Notes under the pieces: generated by a model | Told to the model about the DNA's origin: nothing | Database searches by the model: none | The model's input: the letters and a program-made list of their open reading frames with translations, nothing else | Shown here: positions 4,969-63,260 of the stretch, piece by piece | Position numbering within the stretch: position 1 is the stretch's first letter | Layout: each line of letters begins with the position of its first letter | Assembly: GCA_944329385.1 (NCBI GenBank) | Contig: CALVIE010000001.1 | Span: forward strand, 2,168-66,167 | DNA: 64,000 nucleotides | From: an uncultured Bacilli bacterium | GTDB lineage: Bacteria; Bacillota_I; Bacilli_A; RF39; UBA660 | Direction: 5' to 3' | Translations under genes and position numbers: made by a program

Positions 4969-5947
4969 ATCTTCCTAAGCCTATTTTTGTTTTCATCAAT
5001 TCATATTTAGTTTTAGCTTCTTTTCTAGCTATTTTAATTCCATTATCTAAAATTTCATTTAACTGTTTGGAATTAATTAATTGTTGATATTTTTCTTGAA
5101 TACTAGTTAATTCATTTACTACTAAATCGGCTGTAGCTTTTTTAAATTCAGCATATGAGGAATTTAAAAATTTTTGTTCTACTTCTTTGATAGTTAATTG
5201 TGTTAAAGCGGAATATATATTTATTAAGTTAGAAATTCCTGGTTTATTTTCTACATCAAATTTAATTTGATTATCACTATCAGTGGTAGCTTTCATTATT
5301 TTATTTCTAATTTCTTTTTCGGAGTCTAATATTCTAATAACACCGTTTTGATTTTCACTAGATTTACTCATTTTTTTTGTTGGGTTTACTAGGTCCATTA
5401 TTTTAGTGCCTGTTTCAGTAATTAAAGGTTTTGGAATTTTAAATGTTTCTCCATAGACTTTGTTAAAATTAATGGCTATATCTCTAGCTAATTCGACGTG
5501 CTGTTTCTGATCTATTCCAACTGGTACATAATCTACGTCATAAGTTAATATATCAGCTGCCATTAAAACTGGATAAGTTAATAGACCTGATGTGAATTTT
5601 TCATTTTTTTTACTTTTATCTTTGAACTGTGTCATTCTTGTTAAAACGCCAAATGAGGTATTGCATTCTAAAAACCATGATATATTTGCATGATATTCAT
5701 TTTCTGATTGTATAAAAATGGTGTTTTTTTGTGGATCAATGCCACAAGCTAAATAAATAGCAAGCAAATTTTTTATATTTTGATGTAATGTTTTAGGGTC
5801 CTGTTTTACTGTAATGGCATGCATATCAGCAATAAATAAATATGAATTATATTTATCTTGATTATTAACCATTTGTTTTATGGCTCCTATATAATTTCCT
5901 AGTGTAATTGTTCCTGTTGGTTGTAATCCAGTTAATATTTTTTTCAT
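4967..5947 (-). CDS. trpS: tryptophan--tRNA ligase
   Basis: Class I aaRS with TGTITLGNYIGA (HIGH-like) and KMSKS motifs; 326 aa. Confidence 0.9.
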   Translation of the reverse strand: MKKILTGLQPTGTITLGNYIGAIKQMVNNQDKYNSYLFIADMHAITVKQDPKTLHQNIKNLLAIYLACGIDPQKNTIFIQSENEYHANISWFLECNTSFGVLTRMTQFKDKSKKNEKFTSGLLTYPVLMAADILTYDVDYVPVGIDQKQHVELARDIAINFNKVYGETFKIPKPLITETGTKIMDLVNPTKKMSKSSENQNGVIRILDSEKEIRNKIMKATTDSDNQIKFDVENKPGISNLINIYSALTQLTIKEVEQKFLNSSYAEFKKATADLVVNELTSIQEKYQQLINSKQLNEILDNGIKIARKEAKTKYELMKTKIGLGR

Positions 5948-13892: not shown

Positions 13893-14828
13893 ATGAAAAA
13901 GATTACTAGCGTTTTATCGGTTTTGATTGTTTTTGGTGTTTTTGTTTTAGGTTTTACTTATCGTGAGGATATTGCAAACTATGTAATGAAATCTGTGATT
14001 CAAAGCAAAGAGGTTACTTTGCCTAACGAAAGGTCTAATTTTAATAATTATGAGTTTTCTTTTGTTAGTGAAACAGAAAATTTTCATGTTAAAAATAAGC
14101 AAGAAATTTTAAATGCTCTTTATACTATTTTAAATCATGGAATGAATAATTTTACTTTTTACTGTGATTCTAGTTATGATTCATGTATAGATGATTTAAA
14201 TTTAGTATCACAAGATCAAGTACTATTATCAACTGTCAATAATTTTGTATCTCCTTTTAACAGTTATGAGAAAATTTATTTTAAAATTTCTTCTTATGGA
14301 GAAATAAATATTGATGTAGATAAGTTATATACGGATAATGAGATTATAGAAGTTAATAAAAAAATTAGCGAATTTGAAAGTTCTAATATTAAAGCTGATA
14401 TGAGTGTGAGAGATAAGATTAAGGCTTTTCACGATTATTTAATTAATAATAGTGTTTATGATAAGGTAAGAGCTGAGGCGATTGAAAAAGGCACTGATAG
14501 TGGCGGAGAATATTCTCACAAGGCAACTGGACCTTTACTTCATGGAATTGCACTATGTAGTGGTTATAGTGATGCGATGAAGGTTTATTTAGATAAGTTA
14601 GGAGTTCCTAATTATAAAATATCTAATAACAATCATATTTGGAATTTGGTTTATATAGATGGAAAGTGGCTTCATTTAGATTTAACTTGGGATGATCCTG
14701 TTACTTCTGATGGTTCGAATATTTTACTTGATAAATTTTTCTTAATTACAAATGATGAACTTCAAAAAATAGATTCTACCGGTCATAAATTTGATGTGAA
14801 ATATTACCCTGAAGCAATAAACAGTTAA
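13893..14828 (+). CDS. membrane-anchored transglutaminase-like (Cys-His-Asp) domain protein
   Basis: N-terminal TM helix; catalytic-triad context GIALCSGYSDAM (Cys) ... HIWNLVYIDGKWLHLDLTWDD (His, Asp), typical of the transglutaminase-like superfamily. Confidence 0.6.
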   Translation: MKKITSVLSVLIVFGVFVLGFTYREDIANYVMKSVIQSKEVTLPNERSNFNNYEFSFVSETENFHVKNKQEILNALYTILNHGMNNFTFYCDSSYDSCIDDLNLVSQDQVLLSTVNNFVSPFNSYEKIYFKISSYGEINIDVDKLYTDNEIIEVNKKISEFESSNIKADMSVRDKIKAFHDYLINNSVYDKVRAEAIEKGTDSGGEYSHKATGPLLHGIALCSGYSDAMKVYLDKLGVPNYKISNNNHIWNLVYIDGKWLHLDLTWDDPVTSDGSNILLDKFFLITNDELQKIDSTGHKFDVKYYPEAINS

Positions 14829-14863: not shown

Positions 14864-15808
14864 TTATGATTCAATGATAAATGGATTTGTTTTACTACCA
14901 TATCCACTTAACTGTAATCCTGATTTTATGTGAACTACTGGGAAAGATGTTTCATAGGGATTATTACTCATCCTTACAGTTGTTAATGATCCTAAGTAAA
15001 AAACCCAATGATAATCATTGTTATCTTTATAATGATTTAGCAGCCATCCAAGACTGGGAATACCCCAACCTTTATTTGACACATAATTTATCCAAGTAGT
15101 ACCACCACAATTTGAACCGTAATAACTTACATTATTTGGAAAATTAGCGCAGGCTAATCTGGTATTTGTTCTAAGGAATTCTGTAACAGTGAGTATCGCT
15201 ACTTTTCCGTTCCATTTACTTGTTTTTTCGCTTTGAACAGCCAATTGCAAATTTGTTTCTGTTTTAGTACCTAAATTACCTACATTGAAATTTCTAGCAA
15301 CTATTAAATTTTTTGCTGTAGTAGAAAGATTATTATAATATGTTCCATTTAAATATGTATTTACGTTTGAGTTAGTCCAAGTGGTGTTTCCCCAAGAAGT
15401 AGTATTAGTACTACTTGATGCTCCAGTTTCAGTTAAATTTATAATTTTCATTGTTCCGTCTTTTTCTATTGATAGTATTCGCCATTCTTCATTGTTAAAT
15501 GTAATATAATTATCTACATAATTGCCTCTATAAATATATCTACCTTCTTCATATTCATCCGCATATAGTCCAGATCCAGTTGTAACTACTAAATCTTTTA
15601 ACTTAGAAGAAGTTATAGTTGAACTATCAGCTTTTTTGTAAAGTTCATCTATAGCATCTTGAACATTGGTTGCATTAAGTCCACTTGCTTTATTATCATA
15701 TGTTGTTTGATTTGACGGAAAATATGTTACAGCCGATATGCTTACTGTTCCAACAATTATTGCTGTTAATAGGCATAAAAAGCATCTATTTTTTAAAATT
15801 TTTTTCAT
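14864..15808 (-). CDS. secreted paralog-family protein P1 (divergent member; DUF6273-like core?)
   Basis: Signal peptide/TM, then the conserved block VTYFPSNQTTYDNKASGLNATNVQDAIDELY shared with 39399..40328, 44795..45741, 59484..60437 and the remnant at 30304..30606. The middle is N/T/S/W/Y-rich, and the C-terminus GSKTNPFIIES is related to the GDGSxNPY end of the other copies. Confidence 0.6.
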   Translation of the reverse strand: MKKILKNRCFLCLLTAIIVGTVSISAVTYFPSNQTTYDNKASGLNATNVQDAIDELYKKADSSTITSSKLKDLVVTTGSGLYADEYEEGRYIYRGNYVDNYITFNNEEWRILSIEKDGTMKIINLTETGASSSTNTTSWGNTTWTNSNVNTYLNGTYYNNLSTTAKNLIVARNFNVGNLGTKTETNLQLAVQSEKTSKWNGKVAILTVTEFLRTNTRLACANFPNNVSYYGSNCGGTTWINYVSNKGWGIPSLGWLLNHYKDNNDYHWVFYLGSLTTVRMSNNPYETSFPVVHIKSGLQLSGYGSKTNPFIIES

Positions 15809-15907: not shown

Positions 15908-16129
15908 TTGCTTATGAATAGACTTAGAGATTTAAGGGAGGACCACGATTTATTACAAAAGGATATTGCCAAAATACTTGGGATGTCACAGACTGGATAT
16001 TCACAGTATGAAACTGAAACTAATGATATTCCAACGGCTATTTTAAAAAAACTAGCAATTTATTATAATACAAGTATTGATTATATTTTATGTATGACTA
16101 ATGAGAAAAAACCTTATCCAAAAAAATAA
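15908..16129 (+). CDS. XRE-family helix-turn-helix transcriptional regulator
   Basis: LLQKDIAKILGMSQTGYSQYETETNDIPTAILKKLAIYYNTSIDYIL is a canonical XRE HTH; it is divergent from P1. Confidence 0.6.
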   Translation: MLMNRLRDLREDHDLLQKDIAKILGMSQTGYSQYETETNDIPTAILKKLAIYYNTSIDYILCMTNEKKPYPKK

Positions 16130-18969: not shown

Positions 18970-19344
18970 CTAATTACATTTAACACTACATGTTTTTTCA
19001 TAAGAATAATTATATTGATTATTATCTTTATCATAACTAACTCTTACACAGCCAGTCATTGTTTCACCGGTAGTTGGATCAATAACATCTTTACTACTTT
19101 CTAAGTAACCTTCTTTTTTTAAAAATTCTATGTCAATATCACAGGATGTTTCGGGTAATTTACGCCAATTATCTGTCCCCCATCTTTCGGCGGCATCGGT
19201 AACGGTTTTTATTTGACTTTCTAAGCTATCTTCTTTAGAATTATCAATTAGGCCAACGATAGTTGGAACAGCGATTGTAGCTAATATACCTAAAATCACA
19301 ATGACTGCGAGCAATTCTATAAGTGTAAAGGCTTTATTTTTCAT
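18970..19344 (-). CDS. type IV prepilin-like (ComGC/pseudopilin-like) protein, orphan
   Basis: MKNKAFTLIELLAVIVILGILATIAVP is a class III (prepilin peptidase) signal with the G/FTLIE motif; 4 Cys in the C-terminal domain. No other comG genes nearby. Confidence 0.7.
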   Translation of the reverse strand: MKNKAFTLIELLAVIVILGILATIAVPTIVGLIDNSKEDSLESQIKTVTDAAERWGTDNWRKLPETSCDIDIEFLKKEGYLESSKDVIDPTTGETMTGCVRVSYDKDNNQYNYSYEKTCSVKCN

Positions 19345-28816: not shown

Positions 28817-29767
28817 TTATGATTTTATATTTTGAATTGTTTTTTCATCTAAACCTGTTAATCTAGAAATATCAGATATTTTCATTTTTTCTTTTAACAT
28901 ATTTTTAGCAATTTCTAATGCTTTTACTTTTGATCCTTGTTCAATTCCCTGTTCAATTCCAAGTTCTCTTCCTTGTTCAATTCCAAGTTCTCTTCCTTGT
29001 TCTAGGCCTTCTTTTACTGCTTCATCATGATCAATTTTTTTCATCCATTCATCCATTTTTTCTTTGTCATATAAACCTATAATGTGTTCATCTTCATTTA
29101 AATCTTCAATTATTTTCGCCATATTTTCTAAGTCTTCATCTCCTTTAGATATTTCTTTTAACTGTTTTTTACTTGTTAATTGAAACATTACTAATACTTT
29201 CTCAATTTTTGAAAGTTCATTATTATTATAATACTTATCTAAAGGATTTGCCATATTTATATGGATTCTTTTAAAATTTTCTTCATCCGTAAATTTTCCT
29301 GTATCATCTTTCATACTAAATTCAATGAATAGTCGGTCATCAAATCTATTTATAACATTAAAGTTTAACTGTAATATTTCACTTTTATCCATTTTATTTC
29401 CTGATAAATATCTATCGTAGGCAATTTTATGATGATATACATTATTTTTGGCAATCATACTTGCTTTTGCAGTTTTATTGGCTTCAATATTTATTATTGT
29501 TCCTTCTACTTTTACTATAATATCAGTTATCTTTTTTCTTTCTTTATAATTTTCAAGTGGTAATTCTGTATTAGCAAACACTAGATTTTCAAAAATATAT
29601 CCTGGTGAATAAACAGTGACATGACTTATGATCAAAGATAGTAATTTTCTAAATTTTGGATTTTGAACAATGGATTTAAATATTGGATCAAACATTGATG
29701 TTATGAGTGTATCTGGATTTTTCTTTGTTTCAGGTTTAATACTTGTTTTTGTCATATACTCCTCCAT
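28817..29767 (-). CDS. Rpn-family recombination-promoting nuclease / putative transposase (PD-(D/E)XK, Transposase_31/YhgA-like), copy 1
   Basis: N-terminal DPIFKSIVQNP...DIIVKVEGTIINIEANK core plus C-terminal EQG repeats (LEQGRELGIEQGRELGIEQGIEQG) and the tail IAKNMLKEKMKISDISRLTGL. The tail is nearly identical to that of 43657..44556. Confidence 0.7.
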   Translation of the reverse strand: MEEYMTKTSIKPETKKNPDTLITSMFDPIFKSIVQNPKFRKLLSLIISHVTVYSPGYIFENLVFANTELPLENYKERKKITDIIVKVEGTIINIEANKTAKASMIAKNNVYHHKIAYDRYLSGNKMDKSEILQLNFNVINRFDDRLFIEFSMKDDTGKFTDEENFKRIHINMANPLDKYYNNNELSKIEKVLVMFQLTSKKQLKEISKGDEDLENMAKIIEDLNEDEHIIGLYDKEKMDEWMKKIDHDEAVKEGLEQGRELGIEQGRELGIEQGIEQGSKVKALEIAKNMLKEKMKISDISRLTGLDEKTIQNIKS

Positions 29768-30303: not shown

Positions 30304-30606
30304 ATGGATATTTAGAAAAGTGGTTAGTTTTTTAAAAAGAATATTTTAGGTATTATTATTGGTGGAGTAATATTTGGAAGTTTAGGTGTTTGTGCGGCCA
30401 CCTATTTTCCTAGTAATAATGTAACATACGAAAACAAAAATAGTGGTTTAAAAAGTACTGATGTCCAAGGGGCGATAGATGAACTTTATACAGCTTGCTC
30501 AGAGCTAGCGACTCCGCCAACTCTAGGTGATACAATACTAGAAGATGTGCCAATAGTATCGTCAGGCGATGGTTCTCAAGAGAATCCATTTAATATTTCT
30601 TTATGA
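30304..30606 (+). pseudogene. degenerate remnant of the secreted paralog family, with N- and C-terminal conserved blocks fused and in-frame stops near the start
   Basis: ATG GAT ATT TAG ... then GIIIGGVIFGSLGVCAATYFPSNNVTYENKNSGLKSTDVQGAIDELYTACSELATPPTLGDTILEDVPIVSSGDGSQENPFNISL*. A 67-nt block at 30424-30489 is about 99% identical to P2 at 40151-40217. Confidence 0.5.
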
Positions 30607-39398: not shown

Positions 39399-40328
39399 TT
39401 ATTCAATGCGATAAGGATTATTTTGCGAGCCATCGCCCCCAGTGATTTTAATTTTACTAGACAAATATACGGATGGACGGACTGCAACCGTTTCATTATT
39501 GAGAACATAAGTGCCGCCACCAGCAGAAGTAATAATGAACCCGTTGTAATTGATACCACGACGAGGTGATAACGTCCACCAGCTACTAATATTATTACTT
39601 TGCATCCATGTTGTATTCATACAATTCCTATTTTCTTCATTTGATGCAAATGTTCTACAGCTGCTATTACTATTACTTCTTATATATTCACTCATTGTTA
39701 TTAAGGCAACTTTTCCGTTCCACTTACTACTATTTTCATATGTTATTTGTGAACTCATACTTGATTCAGCATAATTAATAGCTCCTATACTCCAATTTTT
39801 TGAAACAATCTGTCCTTGGGCTGTCTGATTCAAAGTTTCTGTTAAGTAACTTCCATTTAAATACGTGTTCAAATCGGATGGGCGTGCCCAGTTATTTGAG
39901 CCATTGGCTCCTCCTCCTTCATCCCACGCCATATTTCCTATACTTGCTTCTCTCATTATTTTTATGGTTTTATCATTTTCAATAGATACTATTCTCCATA
40001 TCTCATTATTAAATATTATATAATTATTTGGGTTTGTTCCTCTATAAAAATATCTATCTTCATATTCATCTTTATATAAACCATCACCAGATGACACTAT
40101 ATCCACTTTGTCAAGTATTGCTTCTCCTCCTGTTTTAGGTAAACATACATTATAAAGTTCATCTATCGCGCCTTGGACATCAGTACTTTTTAAACCACTA
40201 TTTTTGTTTTCGTATGTTACTAAATTACTATCAAAATATGTTACTGCTGATACTACTGATATACATATTAAAAAACTAAGTGTTAGTCCTATCATATATT
40301 TTTTTATAAATTCTTTTATTTTTTTCAT
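39399..40328 (-). CDS. secreted paralog-family protein P2 (best intact copy)
   Basis: MKKIKEFIKKYMIGLTLSFLICISVVSA signal, then VTYFDSNLVTYENKNSGLKSTDVQGAIDELY; core with FYRGTNPNNYIIFNNEIWRIVSIENDKTIKIM, KWNGKVALITMSEYIRSNSN and SWWTLSPRRG; C-terminus VRPSVYLSSKIKITGGDGSQNNPYRIE. Confidence 0.6.
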   Translation of the reverse strand: MKKIKEFIKKYMIGLTLSFLICISVVSAVTYFDSNLVTYENKNSGLKSTDVQGAIDELYNVCLPKTGGEAILDKVDIVSSGDGLYKDEYEDRYFYRGTNPNNYIIFNNEIWRIVSIENDKTIKIMREASIGNMAWDEGGGANGSNNWARPSDLNTYLNGSYLTETLNQTAQGQIVSKNWSIGAINYAESSMSSQITYENSSKWNGKVALITMSEYIRSNSNSSCRTFASNEENRNCMNTTWMQSNNISSWWTLSPRRGINYNGFIITSAGGGTYVLNNETVAVRPSVYLSSKIKITGGDGSQNNPYRIE

Positions 40329-40447: not shown

Positions 40448-40630
40448 ATGAAGGAGTTTAAACTACCTAAGGTTGAAGATGAACAATCAGTTTTAAAAAC
40501 TATTAGAATTAAATTTACAACTTTAAAAAAGATAGAAGATTTATCTAAGGAAAGTCATTTATCGGTTAATAGAATTATTAATGAATGTATTGAGTTTGCA
40601 CTTAATAATTTAGACATAAAAAAGGATTAA
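40448..40630 (+). CDS. small ribbon-helix-helix (CopG/Arc-like) DNA-binding protein
   Basis: 60 aa; a beta-strand-like KTIRIKF followed by two helices (LKKIEDLSKESHLSVNRIINECIEFAL). It is divergent from P2, with AT-rich repeats (GTATTACA x2) in the intergenic region. Confidence 0.4.
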   Translation: MKEFKLPKVEDEQSVLKTIRIKFTTLKKIEDLSKESHLSVNRIINECIEFALNNLDIKKD

Positions 40631-40676
40631 AAAAATTAATTTAACAAAAAAACAGGCTAAATTCATAGCCTATTTT

Positions 40677-41150
40677 TTAATCAAGTTCATCTTCACCAAT
40701 AATAGTTAAATCATCATCTACATCTACCGCATCATCTAAATCTGGATCATCTAACTGTGAATCATCATCCATATCATGCATATCTTCAGAAGCCATATCG
40801 TCTAATTCATCATCTAATTCTTCTTCGGTTTCCGTTAAGTCTTCTTCATCTTCTGTATCATCTTCGAGATCTAATTTAACTGAATGTCTATCTCTTAAGT
40901 CCCAGGTTGCATCATCTAGCAAAATAAATGTTTTATCAGTTGTTAGTGATGTATAAAAATCCCCTATTTTATTTGCATAATCTTCTTCTGATAATTCTAG
41001 TAAGTTACATATTTTTTTAAATATTTCTGGAGTGTTTAAACTCTTTTTTTCTTCTTTTAAAATCATAGCAGCTAAATCGGTGTAGGAATATAGTTCTAAT
41101 TCATCTTTAGACATTTTTGATAATTTCATATTATACCTCCTAATTAACAT
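40677..41150 (-). CDS. rpoE: DNA-directed RNA polymerase subunit delta
   Basis: HARE-HTH N-terminal domain (LELYSYTDLAAMIL...FYTSLTTDKTFILLDDATWDLRD) plus a long poly-acidic C-terminal tail. The likely start is MKLSK. Confidence 0.8.
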   Translation of the reverse strand: MLIRRYNMKLSKMSKDELELYSYTDLAAMILKEEKKSLNTPEIFKKICNLLELSEEDYANKIGDFYTSLTTDKTFILLDDATWDLRDRHSVKLDLEDDTEDEEDLTETEEELDDELDDMASEDMHDMDDDSQLDDPDLDDAVDVDDDLTIIGEDELD

Positions 41151-43656: not shown

Positions 43657-44556
43657 TTAATCAGTAGTTTTTAATTTTTGAATATCTGTTTCAGTTAGAT
43701 TTGTTAATCTAGAAATAGTTTTAATATCCATTTTCTCTTTAAGCATGTTTTTAGCTATTTGAATATTTCTTTCATTGATACCTTGCTTAACTCCTTGTTC
43801 AAAACCTTCTTGTTTGGCACCTTCCATTTCATTTTGTTTAACTAAAGCGTCCATCTTATCCTTTTGCCATTCATGTAATATAAATTCATCATTATTCATC
43901 TTTATCATAGTCTCCATTAATCTATTAACCTCTTTTTCATCAAGTATCTGCCTAGATAACTCATATAGTTCACTAAATGTTTGTGCTATAAGCATCGTAT
44001 ACCATATAATTTCTTTTGTTTTAACACCTTCATTATAATATAGTTTACTATAAAGTTCAAGGCTCTTTAAAAATATCCTTTTATTACTAGGATAGACTTT
44101 TTGAGTGAGTAATCCATATGGGACAATGATGTCTTCTAGATCTTCTTCAAATGGACTTATATTAAGATTAAGCTGAATATTGTTTATTTCTTTTATACTT
44201 TTTCCTTTTTCAAATATTATGGTCGCTATTTTATCTAAATAATTAAAATTTCTTTCCATTACATACTCAAATTTACTTCTATTCATCTCTATATCAATAA
44301 AGATTTTATCATTAATAGATACAATAATATCCACCATTTTTTTACGTTCATTTTTATTAGTTATAGGATGTTCACTATCCAAAATTCTAATTTTATCATC
44401 TTTAGATATTTCCATTTTTAAACTGGCATTTAATAAATCTACAAGTAAGTTTAAATTTAATTTAAAAACGTTTTTAAAAACAAGGTCATAAGATAAAGGT
44501 ATCATATCTAATTTTTCATCTAACTTTAATAAATATTCTTTAGTTATTGTTTCCAT
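43657..44556 (-). CDS. Rpn-family recombination-promoting nuclease / putative transposase (PD-(D/E)XK), copy 2
   Basis: DLVFKNVFKLNLNLL...DIIVSINDKIFIDIEMNRSKF core; C-terminal EGAKQEGFEQGVKQG repeats and the tail IAKNMLKEKMDIKTISRLTNL, nearly identical to copy 1. Confidence 0.7.
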   Translation of the reverse strand: METITKEYLLKLDEKLDMIPLSYDLVFKNVFKLNLNLLVDLLNASLKMEISKDDKIRILDSEHPITNKNERKKMVDIIVSINDKIFIDIEMNRSKFEYVMERNFNYLDKIATIIFEKGKSIKEINNIQLNLNISPFEEDLEDIIVPYGLLTQKVYPSNKRIFLKSLELYSKLYYNEGVKTKEIIWYTMLIAQTFSELYELSRQILDEKEVNRLMETMIKMNNDEFILHEWQKDKMDALVKQNEMEGAKQEGFEQGVKQGINERNIQIAKNMLKEKMDIKTISRLTNLTETDIQKLKTTD

Positions 44557-44794: not shown

Positions 44795-45741
44795 TTATCC
44801 TAAAGTATATGGGCTTGATGAACTTCCATTTCCTCCTGTAATTTGGACACTAGACGATAGATAGACGGCCGGACGGACCGCACCGGTCGTATTGTTAGCG
44901 TAGACGTAGTTGACGTAGCCGTACGAAAGCACGCCGAACACGTAGTTAGAGTCACCGGCAAGAGGCGACAAAGTCCACCAATAGTCATTTATATACATCC
45001 AGCTGCTATTTTGACATGTACTATAATTATCATTTATTTTACTAAATGTTCCACAGCTACTTTGATTACTATTACTTCTTAGATATTCACTCATTGTTAT
45101 TAGGGCTACTTTTCCATTCCATGTTGTTGCTTTCTCATCATCTATTTGATCTCCCAAGTTATTATTATCCCATGTTGCTGAACCTATATTCCAATTTTTT
45201 GCAACAATTTGGCTTTGGGCTGTCGCATTTAATGTTCCTGTCAAATAACTTCCATTTAAATATGTATTCAAATCGGCTGGACGTTTCCAGTTATTGGAAC
45301 CATAGGTTCCTCCTCCTGCATCCCATGCTATATCCCCTATACTTGCATTCCTCATTATTTTGATTGTTTTATCTGGCTCTATTGACACTATTCTCCATAC
45401 CTCATTATTAAATGTTATATACTTATTTACATTGGCTCCTCTATAAAAATATCTTCCTTCTTCATAAGTATCTTCGTATAATCCGTCACCTGATGTTACT
45501 ATATCTACACTGTCTAAGATAGTATCCCCAGGAGCTGGGACTTTTGTACATTCTTCGTATAGTTCATCTATGGCTTCTTGGACATTTTTTGAAGCAAGAC
45601 CACTTGATTTATTTTCATAACTAACATCTTTTGAATTAAATGTTACTGTGGCATATACGCCTATGCTGCCAAATAGTATTAGTCCTATGACAAAACTTAT
45701 TAGATTTTTTTCACATAATATTTCATTTTTTCTTTCTTCAT
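44795..45741 (-). pseudogene. secreted paralog-family protein P3, interrupted by a frameshift in an A7 tract within the signal-peptide region (candidate phase-variable OFF state)
   Basis: ATG AAG AAA GAA AAA ATG AAA TAT TAT GTG AAA AAA ATC TAA. With A8 the frame continues as MKKEKMKYYVKKNLISFVIGLILFGSIGVYATVTFNSKDVSYENKSSGLASKNVQEAIDELYEE...FYRGANVNKYITFNNEVWRIVSIEPDKTIKIM... into the listed 44795..45388 ORF, which ends with YWWTLSPLAGD...VRPAVYLSSSVQITGGNGSSSSPYTLG. Confidence 0.5.
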
Positions 45742-45851: not shown

Positions 45852-46088
45852 ATGGATGATAATTTAAGCAATTATTACTGCAATTTAGTTAAGAAAAATT
45901 TAAAGAGATTAAAAAATGAAAGAAATTGGAGCATTACTAAAATGGCTTTAGTTTTAGGACTTAGTGAAAGTTATTTAGGACATTTACTTAGTTTAAAATC
46001 GCCTAAAACTCCATCTATTCAATTACTTGGGGCAATTTGTGGAAGAGCAAATGTTCAAATTACTTATTTTTTTGAAAACGAAAAATAG
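45852..46088 (+). CDS. HTH (XRE-like) DNA-binding protein
   Basis: WSITKMALVLGLSESYLGHLLSLKSP is a helix-turn-helix; the gene is divergent from P3 across an intergenic region containing a 29-bp perfect palindrome. Confidence 0.5.
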   Translation: MDDNLSNYYCNLVKKNLKRLKNERNWSITKMALVLGLSESYLGHLLSLKSPKTPSIQLLGAICGRANVQITYFFENEK

Positions 46089-46100
46089 ACCATTTGGGGT

Positions 46101-46811
46101 CTATTTTATTTTAAGAACAAGTTTTTTTACATCTTCATCTTTGACTGATTCGGTTAAGGACATTCCTTTTAAACTTTTATAAAATCCACACATAGTGTTT
46201 GTTTCAATGTTTGAACGCTGTTTTAAAAATTCGGCAAAGCTGTCATAGTCTTGTGAGTTAATAAAATCATAGTATTCATCAGTATCTTCTTTAGTAATAA
46301 TTACTGGAGCTAGTCCTTCTTTCCAAAGATTAGCTGTTAAAATTAGTTTCGCACTTCTTTTATTACCATCTTCTAGCGGATGAATACGCATATATTTAAT
46401 GTTAAACATGGCTTCTCTTAGGAATGGATCTATTTCGTTCCAAGTATGATAATATTGATAAAACAACATATTTAAGGCGTTTGGTATTTGGTTTGGAGCA
46501 ATTGGATCAAATGTGGCTTTAGTACCAGCTGTGACACCAATACGTCTTAAGCCTTTTGGCACTTCATAACTTTCGTTAATAATATTGCCTACTGTTTTAA
46601 TATTTCCTAAGTTTAAATAATCAGTGTCACAAATCAGATAAGAAAGTGCTTCTAGGATATTTAACATTAAATGAGTACGTTGTTCTGGGTTTAAATCTTC
46701 TAATTCAGCTACACTATAGACAAAACGTTCTACAAAGAAATTAGTATATCTTTCTACTATAGATTGATCTGTTATTTGTGGATTTTCATTTATGATTAGT
46801 TCTTCTGACAT
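46101..46811 (-). CDS. Fic/Doc (Fido) family protein
   Basis: HPLEDGNKRSAKL matches the Fic active-site motif HPFx(D/E)GNGR (HPxxDGNxR). Confidence 0.8.
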   Translation of the reverse strand: MSEELIINENPQITDQSIVERYTNFFVERFVYSVAELEDLNPEQRTHLMLNILEALSYLICDTDYLNLGNIKTVGNIINESYEVPKGLRRIGVTAGTKATFDPIAPNQIPNALNMLFYQYYHTWNEIDPFLREAMFNIKYMRIHPLEDGNKRSAKLILTANLWKEGLAPVIITKEDTDEYYDFINSQDYDSFAEFLKQRSNIETNTMCGFYKSLKGMSLTESVKDEDVKKLVLKIK

Positions 46812-59483: not shown

Positions 59484-60437
59484 TTATTTAGAACTTAATT
59501 GATACGGATTATCCTGGCTTCCATCTCCTCCGGTAATTTGGACTGATGATGAAAGTGTTACTACAGGTCGAACACCATAGCTACTTGAATAATTAGAATT
59601 AATGTGTCCGGAACTATCCACACGGTATGCATAACTTCCACTCATGATTGACAGTGTCCACCATGAATCATTTATATACATCCAACTAGTACTTTGACAC
59701 TTAGTATAATTATTATTATTTATATAAAAGGTTCCACAGTTACTTTTATCACTATTACTTCTTATATATTCCGAAACTGTTGCTAAAGCAACTTTCCCAT
59801 TCCACTTTTTATTGTTTTCAACATTTATTTGATTTTCTAAATCTGTATTAAAATTTCCTACAGGTCCTATACTATAATCGCTTGTAATTATTTGATTTTG
59901 GGCTACGCTAGTTAAATTATTATAATATGTTCCATTTAAATATGTATTTAATGTGGCTGGGCGAGTCCAATTATTATTATTTGATGAATCCCATTCCATG
60001 TTTTCTATACTTTCATATTTCATTATCTTGATACTTCCATCTGAATTTATAGATATAATTCTCCAACCAGCAATTTCTCCATTAAAGGTTACATAATTAT
60101 TTGGATTTGCTCCTTTATATGTATATTTTCCATTTTCATATTCATCTTCATATAAGCCATTTCCTTCTGTTACTATATCTATCTCGTCTAATATTGCATC
60201 TCCACCTGTTTTAGGCGGAAAACATACATTATAAAGTTCATCTATGGCTGTTTGAATATTATTTGATGTCATTCCTGTTGTTTCATTACTATATGTTACA
60301 TTTTTACTATCAAAATATGTTATAGCTGATACTGCTGATATACATATTAAGAAACTAAATGGTGTAGGATAAAGGGAATTAAAGTTACAATGGAAAAGAA
60401 AAAAAGTTAGAAATAGATGTTCATTATGGAACATCAA
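59484..60437 (-). CDS. secreted paralog-family protein P4 (altered N-terminus, in an operon with upstream membrane proteins)
   Basis: ...SFLICISAVSAITYFDSKNVTYSNETTGMTSNNIQTAIDELY; core with KYTYKGANPNNYVTFNGEIAGWRIISINSDGSIKIM, KWNGKVALATVSEYIRSNSD and SWWTLSIMSGS; C-terminus VRPVVTLSSSVQITGGDGSQDNPYQL. The N-terminus lacks the MKK n-region of P2 despite near-identical DNA from TTAATATGTATATCAG onward. Confidence 0.6.
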   Translation of the reverse strand: MMFHNEHLFLTFFLFHCNFNSLYPTPFSFLICISAVSAITYFDSKNVTYSNETTGMTSNNIQTAIDELYNVCFPPKTGGDAILDEIDIVTEGNGLYEDEYENGKYTYKGANPNNYVTFNGEIAGWRIISINSDGSIKIMKYESIENMEWDSSNNNNWTRPATLNTYLNGTYYNNLTSVAQNQIITSDYSIGPVGNFNTDLENQINVENNKKWNGKVALATVSEYIRSNSDKSNCGTFYINNNNYTKCQSTSWMYINDSWWTLSIMSGSYAYRVDSSGHINSNYSSSYGVRPVVTLSSSVQITGGDGSQDNPYQLSSK

Positions 60438-60442
60438 AATAC

Positions 60443-61822
60443 CTAACTTTTTTTATACTTAAATTTATAGGTTACGTCTAATTTATAGTTTTCATTTGAT
60501 GCGAATTCTGGAATAGACATTTTTACTTCTTCTTCAAATTCTTTTCTAGTTAAAGGATTTTTTAAGACTTTTAATGATATCATTTCATATTGTGTTCGAA
60601 ATCTAGTCATTATTTTTCTTTCTTCTAGACGATATTCTTGGTTTGCTGCATTAACATCGCTTTCTGGTTCCCAGTTTGTTGGATTGCCTAGAACTTCAGT
60701 TTCTCTATCTTTATATGGTTGGTTTTTTGGAGCTGTTGATTTTTCACTGCTATATTTTCTTTTTGTTCCATTATACCAGCGCCACTGTTTATCTTTATAA
60801 CGATATAGTGTTGCAGTATCTTCATCTTTTTGATCATATTTATCAGTGTTTACTTCTTCTCTTGCACTATATTTTCCACTATTATAATATATTTTTTCGC
60901 CTTTTTCATTTAAATAATAAAATTTATATCCTGTCGTTTGGGTTATGGTTCTATAATCTTTTTCGGCTGGATAATTTAATGAATATTCTGACCAGTTGGT
61001 TTCTATTTCACTATTTTCATCTTTATTTGCATAACCAGCAGGTTGCTCTGATGAAAAATCTGAATAATCACCTTTAATATCATACCATTTCCAACGGCGG
61101 TCGCGATAACGATAGTAGTATGTACTGTCACTTTCAATATTAATTATTTTAGCTTCGGTTGGTATTTTTGGAATATCTTCCATATCCATTGGTAATCTAA
61201 TACCATATTCAGATATTTCATCTTGCAGTTCGCTATCATCAAAATAATCTGACCACTTTGTTGTACTTACTTCACGATCATAATAATTATAATATGGTAT
61301 AACATCAATTATAGCTTTACCAGACGGATATGATGATTGTTCACTACTCCAAGAGCCATATTTTACATTTACAGAACATTGTCCGCAGTTTCTAGCATTT
61401 ACAGTATATATGTAATCTTTTTTATATTTGGTAATTTTAATATCTCCTGAACATACTTGATTATCAGTTTTTCCAGTATTTATATAACCGTCATCATACA
61501 TATCATTTAATTGTATTGTGACACTTTCTCCTTCTAAATTTGGAACGGTTCCTTCATCTTTAGCATAGTTTAAGCTAGCAGATTTTAAATTATTATAGAT
61601 TTTTAAGCAGCCATTATTTTTAAAAGCGGTAACAACAATTATAATAATTATTACTATTGGTAAAATAGTTCCAAAGACAAAGAAAAAGTTTAATATAGGC
61701 TTTTTGCTTTCGAAGCTTCTATCAACGATATTTCCTTCTTTATCGACGTAAGTCTGTCGTTTCATGATATCACCCCTTGTATAATATAATTTTAGCACAT
61801 TTAAGTATATTTTCAAATACAA
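60443..61822 (-). CDS. hypothetical single-pass membrane protein with repeated YRY(R/K)D(R/K)xW(K/R)WY motifs
   Basis: Probable start MKRQTYVD; TM at about aa 45-66; two copies of YRYRDRRWKWY / YRYKDKQWRWY; 6-nt gap to the P4 start. Confidence 0.5.
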   Translation of the reverse strand: MYLKIYLNVLKLYYTRGDIMKRQTYVDKEGNIVDRSFESKKPILNFFFVFGTILPIVIIIIIVVTAFKNNGCLKIYNNLKSASLNYAKDEGTVPNLEGESVTIQLNDMYDDGYINTGKTDNQVCSGDIKITKYKKDYIYTVNARNCGQCSVNVKYGSWSSEQSSYPSGKAIIDVIPYYNYYDREVSTTKWSDYFDDSELQDEISEYGIRLPMDMEDIPKIPTEAKIINIESDSTYYYRYRDRRWKWYDIKGDYSDFSSEQPAGYANKDENSEIETNWSEYSLNYPAEKDYRTITQTTGYKFYYLNEKGEKIYYNSGKYSAREEVNTDKYDQKDEDTATLYRYKDKQWRWYNGTKRKYSSEKSTAPKNQPYKDRETEVLGNPTNWEPESDVNAANQEYRLEERKIMTRFRTQYEMISLKVLKNPLTRKEFEEEVKMSIPEFASNENYKLDVTYKFKYKKS

Positions 61823-61856: not shown

Positions 61857-63260
61857 TTAATTTATACCCGTTTTATCATCTGGTGATGTATTAAATATTG
61901 AGTCTTGGTTTACATCCAAAGTTTCAACTTTTGTTTCTGGTGATGTAGTTTGGCTAGGTGTGAGTGTTTCGACGTTTGGTGTAGTAGTAGATTCTATTGG
62001 ATTAGAATTTATATTATTATCTAATGTTTCTACTTGCGACTTATCATAAATTTGATTAATGCTATTAGTTAAATCAGTATTTAATGTTTCTACAGTATTT
62101 GGGTTATTTTCTATTGGTGCGATATTTAATGTTTCCACAGAATTTGAATTGTTTTCTGGTGATGTGGTATTTGTCATTAAATCGCTGTTTAAAGTCATAG
62201 CTGTAGATGGAGTTTCTGTTTGATTTTGCACCTGCGAAACAACATTTTGAGAGAATGTGTTATTTGCGGGATTTATCTCTTCTGTATTTGATGTTACTAA
62301 AGTAGAATTTATTTGTGTATTGTTTTGACTTACTTCAGGTTCAACTTGTTTCATTGGTGTTTGAGGCATAGGAATATTATTTAAAGGTGTGTCATTGACT
62401 GGTGTATTGTTTTCTTTTGGTGTTTTTTTCTTTCTTATTTTATTTATAACAATAACAGCAATAATTATAATAATAGCAGCAGCTATTCCTATAGCTAAAT
62501 AAATATTAGTCATATTATATAATTCAAAGGTAGCATTTATATTTTCAAGATTTTGGTCTAATAAATTCCATTTCAAATTTTTTCCATTATTATCGGTTGA
62601 TGTGGCATTACTGCTTATGGCCTTATAAGGCAAATTGATGTTGAAAGTTATATCCATACTAGAAGTCATTGCTTCTAGTCCTATAGCACTTCCTTGGGCT
62701 GCAGTGTTATCTGTTGTTGGACTCACCGTATTTGAAGTATCTTGTGTGTCATTTGGTGTAGTAACAGTATCATCGATACTAGTTATATCATCAGTTTCAG
62801 TAAGTGCATCTTGGGAACCAAAACTATCCATTTCGTTTTGAAGTTCATCAGAAGTTTCATTATCAATTTTGAATGTATATGTGTTTTTAAATAAACCTTT
62901 TTTTATGATAAACATTTTAGGATTTTTTTCAGTCATAGTTTGTTCAAGATTATATTTCACTTCTTTTTCACTACTTACATTATCAATATTTGCAATTTTT
63001 TTTGTAAATGTATATCCTGTCATCGTACCATCTGAGTAATCTTTTACTGTAAAGCCAGCATCTTTTATAGATTGAACTTCTTCGTTATCTACCATTTCAT
63101 CAGTGTCCGCTTGTTGCATCATGCTTGCTGGTAAGGCAACTATTATTTCATAATTCATTGACTTATCTTTATTTATGGACATTTTCCATTCATATTTTAC
63201 ACAACCTGTCATCATTAAACTAGCCAATATTAAGCATAAAATTTTATAACTTTTTTTCAT
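61857..63260 (-). CDS. lipoprotein with an extracytoplasmic domain, one TM helix and a cytoplasmic low-complexity tail carrying six VETL repeats
   Basis: Lipobox LMMTGC; TM IYLAIGIAAAIIIIIAVIVI; tail repeats NSVETLNIA, NTVETLNTD, SQVETLDNN, PNVETLTPS, TKVETLDVN. Confidence 0.5.
   Translation of the reverse strand: MKKSYKILCLILASLMMTGCVKYEWKMSINKDKSMNYEIIVALPASMMQQADTDEMVDNEEVQSIKDAGFTVKDYSDGTMTGYTFTKKIANIDNVSSEKEVKYNLEQTMTEKNPKMFIIKKGLFKNTYTFKIDNETSDELQNEMDSFGSQDALTETDDITSIDDTVTTPNDTQDTSNTVSPTTDNTAAQGSAIGLEAMTSSMDITFNINLPYKAISSNATSTDNNGKNLKWNLLDQNLENINATFELYNMTNIYLAIGIAAAIIIIIAVIVINKIRKKKTPKENNTPVNDTPLNNIPMPQTPMKQVEPEVSQNNTQINSTLVTSNTEEINPANNTFSQNVVSQVQNQTETPSTAMTLNSDLMTNTTSPENNSNSVETLNIAPIENNPNTVETLNTDLTNSINQIYDKSQVETLDNNINSNPIESTTTPNVETLTPSQTTSPETKVETLDVNQDSIFNTSPDDKTGIN

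Follow-up and report, generated by a model that had tools for sequence, protein, structure and literature searches.

In prokaryotes, diversity-generating retroelements (DGRs) are the only natural means known by which hypermutation is targeted to proteins. In these elements a template repeat (TR) is transcribed, its RNA is copied by a reverse transcriptase (RT) that is error-prone at adenines, and the cDNA homes into the variable region (VR) of a target gene by way of an initiation of mutagenic homing (IMH) site and sequence homology. The present analysis concerns a 64,000-nucleotide stretch of DNA, referred to as the window, from an uncultured Bacilli bacterium (contig CALVIE010000001.1), and in particular the gene at positions 39,399 to 40,328, called c39, together with its relatives in the window, named c14, c44 and c59, and a shorter remnant (Table 1). 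These five loci probably represent an expanded family of exported, lectin-like proteins, in which a patch on the head of the protein is the VR of a DGR or the decayed descendant of one. DGR variable proteins, the C-type-lectin fold, its DUF6273 subclass and cassettes with a MutS_I-like (MSL) gene are all already known. What is unusual is how densely the paralogs occur and how widely they are scattered in a genome of ~1.5 Mb, the presence of TR copies attached to targets with no RT beside them, the pairing of most copies with a divergent regulator gene of their own, and the joining of an export signal to a repeat of the phage tail-fibre type.

DUF6273 has been described as a C-type-lectin-like DGR target domain in gut phages, where it is found in the tentaclins, the Mtd-like 'target2' proteins and the Toutatisvirus targets (PMC10743442; bioRxiv 10.1101/2024.10.15.618418). 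The family described here shares with them the Pfam domain and C-type-lectin-like fold, the position of the VR at the C-terminal end of the domain on a surface beta-hairpin, and a TR core of the same type (...NVFNVN.NGNVNNNNANN...). Unlike the phage targets, its members are chromosomal, begin with a signal/anchor helix, lack Ig-like domains and have no RT beside them. They also occur in at least 14–19 copies per ~1.5-Mb genome, as counted among the 80 best-matching loci, where they are placed among housekeeping genes and mostly accompanied by an XRE or ribbon-helix-helix (RHH) gene. DUF6273 is further found at the N-terminus of the IgA protease of Thomasclavelia ramosa (PDB 9qa6), where it forms a single domain within a sortase-anchored enzyme of 137 kDa and has no function assigned to it (PMC12402451), whereas here it belongs to a stand-alone protein with a hypervariable patch.

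Cellular DGR targets are barely characterised, with diversification confirmed once and one target structure solved (PMC10907252). In comparison with TvpA of Treponema denticola, LdtA of Legionella and Mtd of phage BPP-1, the present family has a DUF6273 rather than an FGE-sulfatase/DUF1566 domain, is without a lipobox, has many more paralogs per genome, and has TR copies attached to its targets with no adjacent RT. As with the DGR paralogs of cyanobacteria and Thiohalocapsa, C-type-lectin targets have been duplicated and dispersed within the genome, and in those organisms too there are incomplete loci, activity in trans and residual TR homology in paralogs (PMC7517822; PMC10907252). However, those genomes measure 5–9 Mb and hold ~10–15 targets, often fused to kinase, NTPase or protease domains, in contrast to the single-domain exported proteins of a ~1.5-Mb genome. 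The highest counts found in the literature are 7 non-adjacent targets (PMC5758913) and 15 targets in the large genome of Thiohalocapsa (PMC10907252), and remote targets were undetectable in the largest DGR survey (PMC8144416). The MSL gene is a known DGR accessory gene, found in cassettes of 'Architecture D' (Wu et al. 2018; PMC5758913). A similar small gene follows the TR at L020, one of roughly 90 related family loci that were compared and that are given L-numbers. Unlike the described MSL cassettes, the family loci show only target-TR-MSL (L020) or target-MSL (L018), with no Avd or RT there.

Codon signature of the hypervariable patch

When 89 copies of the family are compared, amino-acid entropy reaches a peak of 2–3.4 bits at residues 251–280 of c39, adjoining the conserved C-terminus. 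The remaining middle of the protein shows moderate variability (1.3–2 bits), so that the variable core seen in the initial annotation is present in this milder form and the true peak is found beside the conserved end. Over this stretch A becomes scarcer and C more frequent at third codon positions. The patch spans 23–27 codons between the motifs WWTLSP and AVRP. Over 48 copies, third-position A amounts to 7.9% in the WWTLS–VRP segment against 41% elsewhere in the gene, third-position C to 38% against 8.4%, and asparagine is encoded as AAC in 54% of cases against 9%. The consensus of the segment is made of invariant A-free codons (TTG TCG CCT .. TCT GGC .. TCT .. GTG TTC .. GTG .. GGC .. GTC .. 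GCG) interleaved with NNC codons. In a genome of 28% GC (28.4% in the window), such a pattern is very hard to explain except by AAC-rich templating together with adenine-specific mutagenesis. For annotation this means that DGR targets in an AT-rich genome can be told by codon composition alone, from NNC codons and third positions free of A, even when the RT is distant.

Within the window the signature is strongest in c44, the VR of which has no third-position A, 55% third-position C and a GC content of 55%, with up to 62% GC in the segment 44,820–44,992. In the equivalent region of c39 it is partly kept, with third-position A, third-position C and GC at 0.07, 0.25 and 0.44, against 0.43, 0.09 and 0.31 in the remaining gene. 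A pattern search of the window placed the GC-rich IMH-like sequence in c39 and c44 only, at a position that coincides with the point where A-mutagenesis ends on the 3' side when the TRs and VRs of relatives are aligned. A GC-rich patch in the middle of the gene (39,858–39,944 in c39 and 45,268–45,339 in c44; 52–57% GC), encoding WD(E/A)GGGxxGSNNWxRP, was considered as a second DGR VR and rejected, because third-position A is not depleted there family-wide.

Three alleles of c44 are available, namely that of the window and two that come from related samples, L088 (10,001–10,945) and L090 (4,889–5,818), and all share the tail AVRPAVYLSSSVQITGGNGSSSSPYT. The 27 codons of the VR contain 15, 16 and 0 variable sites at codon positions 1, 2 and 3, respectively, in contrast to 52, 34 and 86 in the 282 codons of the remaining gene, and among the 50 invariant sites of the VR just 2 are A. 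Such a distribution would be expected had a single TR been the source of all three alleles. The TR of the window's lineage, as deduced from these alleles, would read approximately TTGTCGCCT AAT GCC AGT AAC TCT AAC AAC GTGTTC, followed by AAC GTG AAT TCG AAC GGC AAC GTC AAC AAC AAC AAC and then GCT AAC AAT ACG AAC AAT GCGGTCCGTCCGGCC. Exact-pattern scans for this deduced TR, which can also be written TTGTCGCCTAATGCCAGTAACTCTAACAACGTGTTCAACGTGAATTCGAACGGCAACGTCAACAACAACAACGCTAACAATACGAACAATGCGGTCCGTCCGGCC, gave 0 matches in viral contigs and in JGI metagenome contigs.

Template repeats and accessory genes in relatives

An intact TR is present in the metagenome-assembled genome (MAG) BRZ_CL bin38, at L020 (5,047–5,244), with an equivalent in L054. 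Both were located by a scan for AAC-codon density, an earlier blastn search for TR-like non-coding copies near 107 VRs having returned short fragments only. The TR lies directly 3' of the family gene, encodes ...SPNSSNSNNVFNVNNNGNVNNNNANNTNNAVRP... / ...CLSPNSSNSNNVFNVNNNGNVNNNNANNTNNAVRPAITLSSDVQITGGTGTQSNPY and carries AAC at every variable position. The VRs of L034, L020 and L054 differ from it at 19, 20 and 21 of its 57 adenines, respectively, but at just 0, 1 and 3 of the 110 other bases; pooled, 60 of 171 TR-adenine sites are mismatched against 4 of 330 other sites. Differences so nearly confined to adenines indicate that diversification in BRZ_CL bin38 has been very recent, and L034, which has no TR of its own, must be a remote target. 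In the remaining paralogs, mismatches to the L020 TR fall on adenines and on other bases alike, which implies that any one TR serves only a subset of paralogs. The adenine-only relationship of TR and VR is direct in BRZ_CL bin38, whilst its indirect equivalent is seen in c44, partly in c39, and not in c59 or c14.

In the TR/VR pairs A-mutagenesis ends at GCGGTCCGCCC, the AVRP codons. The motif GCGGTCCGYCC..., which is also found in c39 and c44, follows directly after the last mutated adenine in every pair. Identity between TR and VR then continues for ~80 nt beyond the AVRP codons, to ...CCATACAC, which corresponds to the conserved C-terminus of the proteins. A GC-rich IMH-like site at the 3' boundary of mutagenesis and 3' homology, both hallmarks of a DGR, are hence present.

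Downstream of the L020 TR is a gene for a 136-aa MSL protein (5,329–5,739). It is homologous to the MSL of complete TR-MSL-Avd-RT cassettes from low-GC Bacilli MAGs (L092, L094, L097 and L098), the targets of which share 23–31% identity with residues ~78–309 of the family. These cassettes came to light when the RT from a cassette with the same TR core was used as a protein query, followed by four contig look-ups. All of them come from other Bacilli MAGs, and the same RT search gave none in the family's own genomes.

A conserved element of ~120 nt, ...CGCAAACTCCnATAGGAGTTTGGTAGCGGGGCGAATGCCTCGCC...GCCGAAAAA..TTTTTCGGC..., is found between the stop codon of the target and the TR at six of the related loci (Table 1), and it is kept where the TR is shortened. 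RNAalifold folds it into three hairpins with no covariation. The window contains no copy of it, and there was no credible match in Rfam and none in exact-pattern scans of viral contigs and JGI metagenome contigs. Given the Rfam result and the absence of covariation, no RNA identity is claimed for the element.

Protein architecture and fold

The link to DUF6273 suggested in the initial annotation proved correct. The four long copies score 25.0, 25.9, 34.7 and 32.4 bits against Pfam PF19789, all above the gathering score of 23.5, and most database relatives carry a precomputed match to the same entry. The c39 protein is composed of a signal/transmembrane helix (residues 1–27), a tail-fibre-type repeat unit (residues 29–59), a beta neck and the DUF6273 C-type-lectin-like domain. 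An AlphaFold2 model built on 56 homologues (pLDDT 88.1, pTM 0.79) has a helix at residues 2–22, a stretch of low confidence at 23–50, short helices, the beta neck and a mixed alpha/beta head, and it is similar to solved structures with the C-type-lectin fold of the bacterial/DGR subclass. Searching the PDB by sequence with the 56-sequence profile produced noise only (E > 0.3), the PHROGs collection gave the family proteins only a weak match of unknown function (PHROG 9958), and NCBIfam assigned no family to any copy.

The N-terminal block has the consensus (V/I)TYFxSNxVTYxNxxSGLxSxxVQxAIDELY and, when searched alone against 1.84 billion representative proteins, gives 778 matches at E <= 1e-3. 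Most of the top matches contain it as tandem repeats, with up to 44 units in one protein of 5298 aa. Three of the repeat-bearing proteins, P0158, P0175 and P0137, contain 3–6 units of xVxYDNxxSGLxAxxVQxAIDE(L/V) and match PHROG 2137, 'tail fiber protein', on the repeat. By sequence comparison, then, the block corresponds to one copy of a repeat of the phage tail-fibre type, placed directly after the signal/anchor helix. It probably acts as an oligomerising stalk, which would fit its low pLDDT in a monomer model. At L039 (2,845–3,522) the signal helix and a VTYFPSN...VQGAIDELY module are fused to DUF5050-like 'IYFTG...LYKVSINGG' repeats, a combination with another C-terminal domain which suggests that the N-terminal module is a portable export-and-stalk unit.

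The C-terminal block has two roles, as it supplies the last strands of the lectin fold and also contains the IMH-like site with 3' homology to the TR. Both terminal blocks, which had at first gone unrecognised, are thus explained. The proteins are predicted to be exported and surface-exposed. Direct reading of the termini, which end ...NPY(x)3-5, revealed no LPXTG sortase motif and no consistent L-x-x-C lipobox, and lipoprotein, sortase and type IV pilin signals were rejected on the same reading. The original view of variable antigens or adhesins stands insofar as these are multi-copy, exported, variable binding proteins with homology to DUF6273, but it had not seen the DGR mechanism.

Size, dispersal and state of the family

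Among 5.8 billion proteins there are 1360 relatives at E <= 1e-3. The 120 best matches listed are ~280–340 aa in length, mostly 304–320 aa, and without an assigned name, and almost all of them derive from ENA or NCBI metagenome assemblies. In the GTDB set, with one genome per species, at least 505 stretches encode the family, and the best 80 of these all come from seven MAGs labelled 'uncultured Bacilli bacterium'. The complete 1.52-Mb chromosome OZ007022.1 accounts for 14 of the best 80 loci and a second MAG for 19. In the window the density is about one family protein per 13 kb. An uncultured gut Bacilli lineage with a ~1.5-Mb genome of 28% GC thus gives a notable share of it to a single family of DGR-type targets. 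Such a repertoire, if active, would offer a compact model for how commensals vary a binding surface, for how one retroelement can serve many dispersed targets, and for the birth, duplication and decay of DGR targets.

The scattering of copies among housekeeping genes, as first described, is borne out by the neighbours prfA, polC, rpoE, argH and the sporulation gene yunB in the window and by synteny between species. Upstream of prfA the order shared with relatives is a penicillin-binding protein (PBP) gene, DUF1934, rpoE, an optional extra family copy, a small divergent gene and the family gene, followed by prfA, prmC, RNase R and polC.

The five loci do form one paralog family, since a tblastn search with the c39 product recovers c44 (E = 2e-101), c59 (2e-88), c14 (3e-49) and the remnant (3e-19). 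They are not five equal copies. Three are full-length, whereas c44 is frameshifted, its ATG at 45,741 being out of frame with the remainder of the gene, and the remnant, on the opposite strand to the others, has lost its interior by a deletion between two GDG motifs that fuses ...SSGDG to SQENPF. The remnant also has stop codons in its N-terminal part and upstream in the signal region. It follows that expression is plausible for just three of the window's copies. The A7 break in c44 could be a pseudogene mutation, a phase-off state or a sequencing error. The signal segment ascribed to each copy is evident as the N-terminal helix of c39, but c59 is without the usual MKK start, its 5' end having been replaced by an unrelated hydrophobic stretch. 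The VRP block reported at the C-terminus of four of the five copies is lacking in c14, the divergent member, which retains the N-terminal block and has no recognisable VR.

Exchange of segments between copies

L005, a locus on a contig of a different sample, matches the window with 100% identity over 41,640–40,741 and 39,422–37,083, but identity falls to 52–87% over 40,025–39,423, the body of c39. Conserved ends around a variable middle are therefore visible even between near-identical strains. The replaced segment is far larger than the VR, which points to recombination between alleles or paralogs, as do mosaic proteins such as P0004, which combines the N-terminal half of P0003 with the C-terminal half of P0001. 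Tandem arrays and truncated copies of the family are also present in relatives. On the L005 comparison the c39 region is a strain-level hot spot, and in L005 one more family copy, of 304 aa, is inserted between the small divergent gene and rpoE (window 40,630–40,677).

Proposed mechanism and alternative explanations

The fold, the codon signature, the TR of relatives, the adenine-only differences and the pattern of the c44 alleles together argue that the family consists of variable proteins of a DGR or of descendants of such proteins that have decayed. In such a scheme each protein would lead from a signal/anchor helix through a single tail-fibre-type repeat unit and a beta-rich neck to the DUF6273 C-type-lectin-fold head. 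A TR rich in AAC/AAT codons would be transcribed, the RNA would be reverse-transcribed with random misincorporation opposite adenines, and the cDNA would replace the VR, with the GC-rich AVRP-coding sequence and the ~80 nt beyond it acting as homing site and 3' homology. The TR and RT would still reside elsewhere in the window's genome, and the variable patch would bind host or microbial ligands. As a second layer, recombination between paralogs or alleles would swap larger segments and add or remove whole copies, whilst individual copies would decay (c14, c59), become frameshifted (c44) or be deleted (the remnant).

Several observations weigh against this scheme. No TR, RT, Avd or MSL gene is found in the 64-kb window, and no RT within ~4–10 kb of the roughly 90 related loci, as judged from motif regexes run over all loci, inspection of the open reading frames (ORFs) around the TRs, and tblastn with canonical cassette proteins against the window and 85 loci. 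With no RT near the window or the related loci, any present activity of a DGR in the window's genome is putative. The c44 gene differs from the TR of relatives at 26 of 57 A sites and 20 of 110 non-A sites, so the two are not cognate. Little of the DGR signature is left in c59 and none is recognisable in c14. Export and a surface location are predicted from the N-terminal helix and from an AxA-like site seen on visual reading of the sequence. In relatives, the TR copies of L037, L041, L055, L072 and L091 are shortened or partly overwritten, and L018, which is orthologous to L020 but comes from a different species, has kept MSL (1,229–1,633) and lost both the TR and the VR signature. L018 is a snapshot of cassette decay, and with the degenerate TRs it indicates that the system is decaying in at least part of the lineage.

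These same observations feed the main rival, in which the family descends from DGR targets, the retroelement has gone, and variation now arises through duplication, point mutation, gene conversion and allelic exchange. The missing cassette in the window, the degenerate TRs and TR-less cassette of relatives, the decayed VRs of c59 and c14, the frameshift and the remnant would all be expected of such a fossil, as would a replacement between near-identical strains much larger than the VR. It is nevertheless unlikely. Between the c44 alleles there are 31 differences at codon positions 1 and 2 and none at position 3 over 27 codons, and the invariant sites are almost A-free, a pattern that ordinary mutation and decay would quickly erase at 28% GC. 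In BRZ_CL bin38, moreover, three VRs differ from their TR essentially at adenines only, so diversification there must be very recent.

Far less probable is cassette-based antigenic or phase variation of the pilE/pilS or vlsE type, with silent copies as donors and homopolymer slippage as a switch, and without any retroelement. Mosaic alleles, partial copies and remnants beside full copies, the A7/A8 difference at the start of c44, and the Rpn-like PD-(D/E)XK genes that adjoin two degenerate copies would all suit it. However, the majority of copies are whole genes, each with a regulator gene upstream of it, rather than promoterless cassettes, the loci are syntenic across species, and recombination cannot create an A-free/NNC pattern or an AAC-rich template. 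A-runs are also frequent at 28% GC, so a single frameshift is insufficient evidence for phase variation. Such exchange is more plausible as an additional layer than as the principal mechanism. That the genes are prophage receptor-binding (tail-fibre) genes, chromosomal by chance, is hardly credible in spite of the tail-fibre-type repeat, the DUF6273 DGR targets of gut phages (PMC10743442) and the weak PHROG 9958 match, given that only the ~30-aa repeat unit is held in common with tail fibres, that a signal/anchor helix, absent from tail fibres, stands at the start of each protein, that no phage structural genes lie nearby amongst housekeeping neighbours syntenic between species, and that 2.9 million viral contigs yielded only two distant relatives of 31–34% identity.

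The DGR explanation can be taken further, though this is tentative and on balance doubtful. The bacterium would be a gut organism with a minimal genome and with dozens of individually regulated, exported lectin-like receptors, diversified both by a DGR and by recombination between paralogs. TR copies would travel as 'target-TR-MSL' modules with the RT acting in trans, and the Rpn-like nucleases might help recombination. Were this true, and combined with on/off switching, the result would be a combinatorial surface repertoire, comparable in a bacterium to an array of germline receptors that undergoes somatic hypermutation.

Regulators and neighbouring genes

A small divergent ORF is found 90–190 nt upstream of 54 of 77 family copies. 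Most of these encode XRE-family helix-turn-helix (HTH) proteins of several subfamilies and some are RHH-like. Possession of its own divergent regulator by most copies suggests that expression may be controlled copy by copy. In the window such genes accompany c14, c39 and c44 (Table 1), and c59 has none. Orthologues of the c14 regulator are found in L007, L043, L021 and L042, those of the c39 gene at the syntenic locus in L005 and L001, and those of the c44 regulator next to family copies in L001, L053 and L077.

Table 1. Positions of family copies, their sub-regions and nearby genes in the window, and of the TR-upstream element at related loci
Feature	Locus	Position	Strand	Remark
c39, intact family gene	window	39399..40328	-	309 aa
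N-terminal conserved block of c39	window	40152..40244	-	VTYFDSNLVTYENKNSGLKSTDVQGAIDELY; one unit of a tandem repeat
VR equivalent of c39	window	39486..39563	-	26 codons, RRGINYNGFIITSAGGGTYVLNNETV; DGR-type composition partly kept
IMH-like GC-rich sequence of c39	window	39456..39485	-	GCAGTCCGTCCATCCGT...; AVRPSVY codons; 3' edge of VR
c14, divergent family gene	window	14864..15808	-	314 aa; 39% identity to c39
c44, frameshifted family gene	window	44795..45741	-	one added A gives a 315-aa ORF; 59% identity to c39
A7 homopolymer, frame break of c44	window	45705..45711	-	A8 in intact allele of relative L088
VR of c44	window	44882..44962	-	27 codons, LAGDSNYVFGVLSYGYVNYVYANNTTG; strongest DGR-type signature in the window
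IMH-like GC-rich sequence of c44	window	44852..44881	-	GCGGTCCGTCCGGCCGTC...; AVRPAVY; 3' edge of VR
c59, family gene	window	59484..60437	-	317 aa from TTG start; 54% identity to c39
VR equivalent of c59	window	59577..59645	-	largely decayed; third-position A 0.16, C 0.20, GC 0.37
Remnant	window	30328..30606	+	N-terminal module joined directly to C-terminal GDGSQENPF; short, 59% identity to c39
XRE-family HTH gene upstream of c14, divergent	window	15908..16129	+	Pfam HTH_3, E 2.7e-12
60-aa gene upstream of c39, divergent	window	40448..40630	+	RHH-like by eye; no Pfam match
XRE-family HTH gene upstream of c44, divergent	window	45852..46088	+	Pfam HTH_3, E 3.8e-5
Fic-domain gene	window	46101..46811	-	12 nt beyond XRE gene of c44, convergent
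Rpn-like PD-(D/E)XK 'transposase' gene	window	43657..44556	-	Pfam PDDEXK_2; adjoins c44
Rpn-like PD-(D/E)XK 'transposase' gene	window	28817..29767	-	adjoins remnant
Membrane protein gene upstream of c59	window	60443..61822	-	459 aa; no Pfam/NCBIfam match
Putative lipoprotein gene, also upstream of c59	window	61857..63260	-	467 aa; no Pfam/NCBIfam match
Transglutaminase-like secreted protein or lipoprotein gene	window	13893..14828	+	convergent with c14
ComGC-like gene	window	18970..19344	-	124 aa
TR-upstream element	L020	4930..5046
TR-upstream element	L054	4927..5043
TR-upstream element	L055	915..1030
TR-upstream element	L072	4938..5060
TR-upstream element	L037	4914..5040
TR-upstream element	L041	4938..5020

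The two Rpn-like genes are paralogs of one another with 32% identity. Each is next to a degenerate family copy, and a homologue is found near the family locus of L005; on the basis of these positions, they may possibly play a part in recombination between paralogs. The Fic-domain gene beyond the c44 regulator likewise has a counterpart near the L001 family locus.

The start of c59 lies 5 nt past the stop codon of the same-strand gene upstream, and the two may be co-transcribed. The product of that upstream gene contains W/Y/R-rich motifs, YRYRDRRWKWY and LYRYKDKQWRWY. The assignment of the gene convergent with c14 is based on a weak Transglut_core match and a partial match to NCBIfam MAG6410, and the ComGC-like protein has the N-terminus of a type IV pilin or pseudopilin (KAFTLIELLAVIVILGILA).

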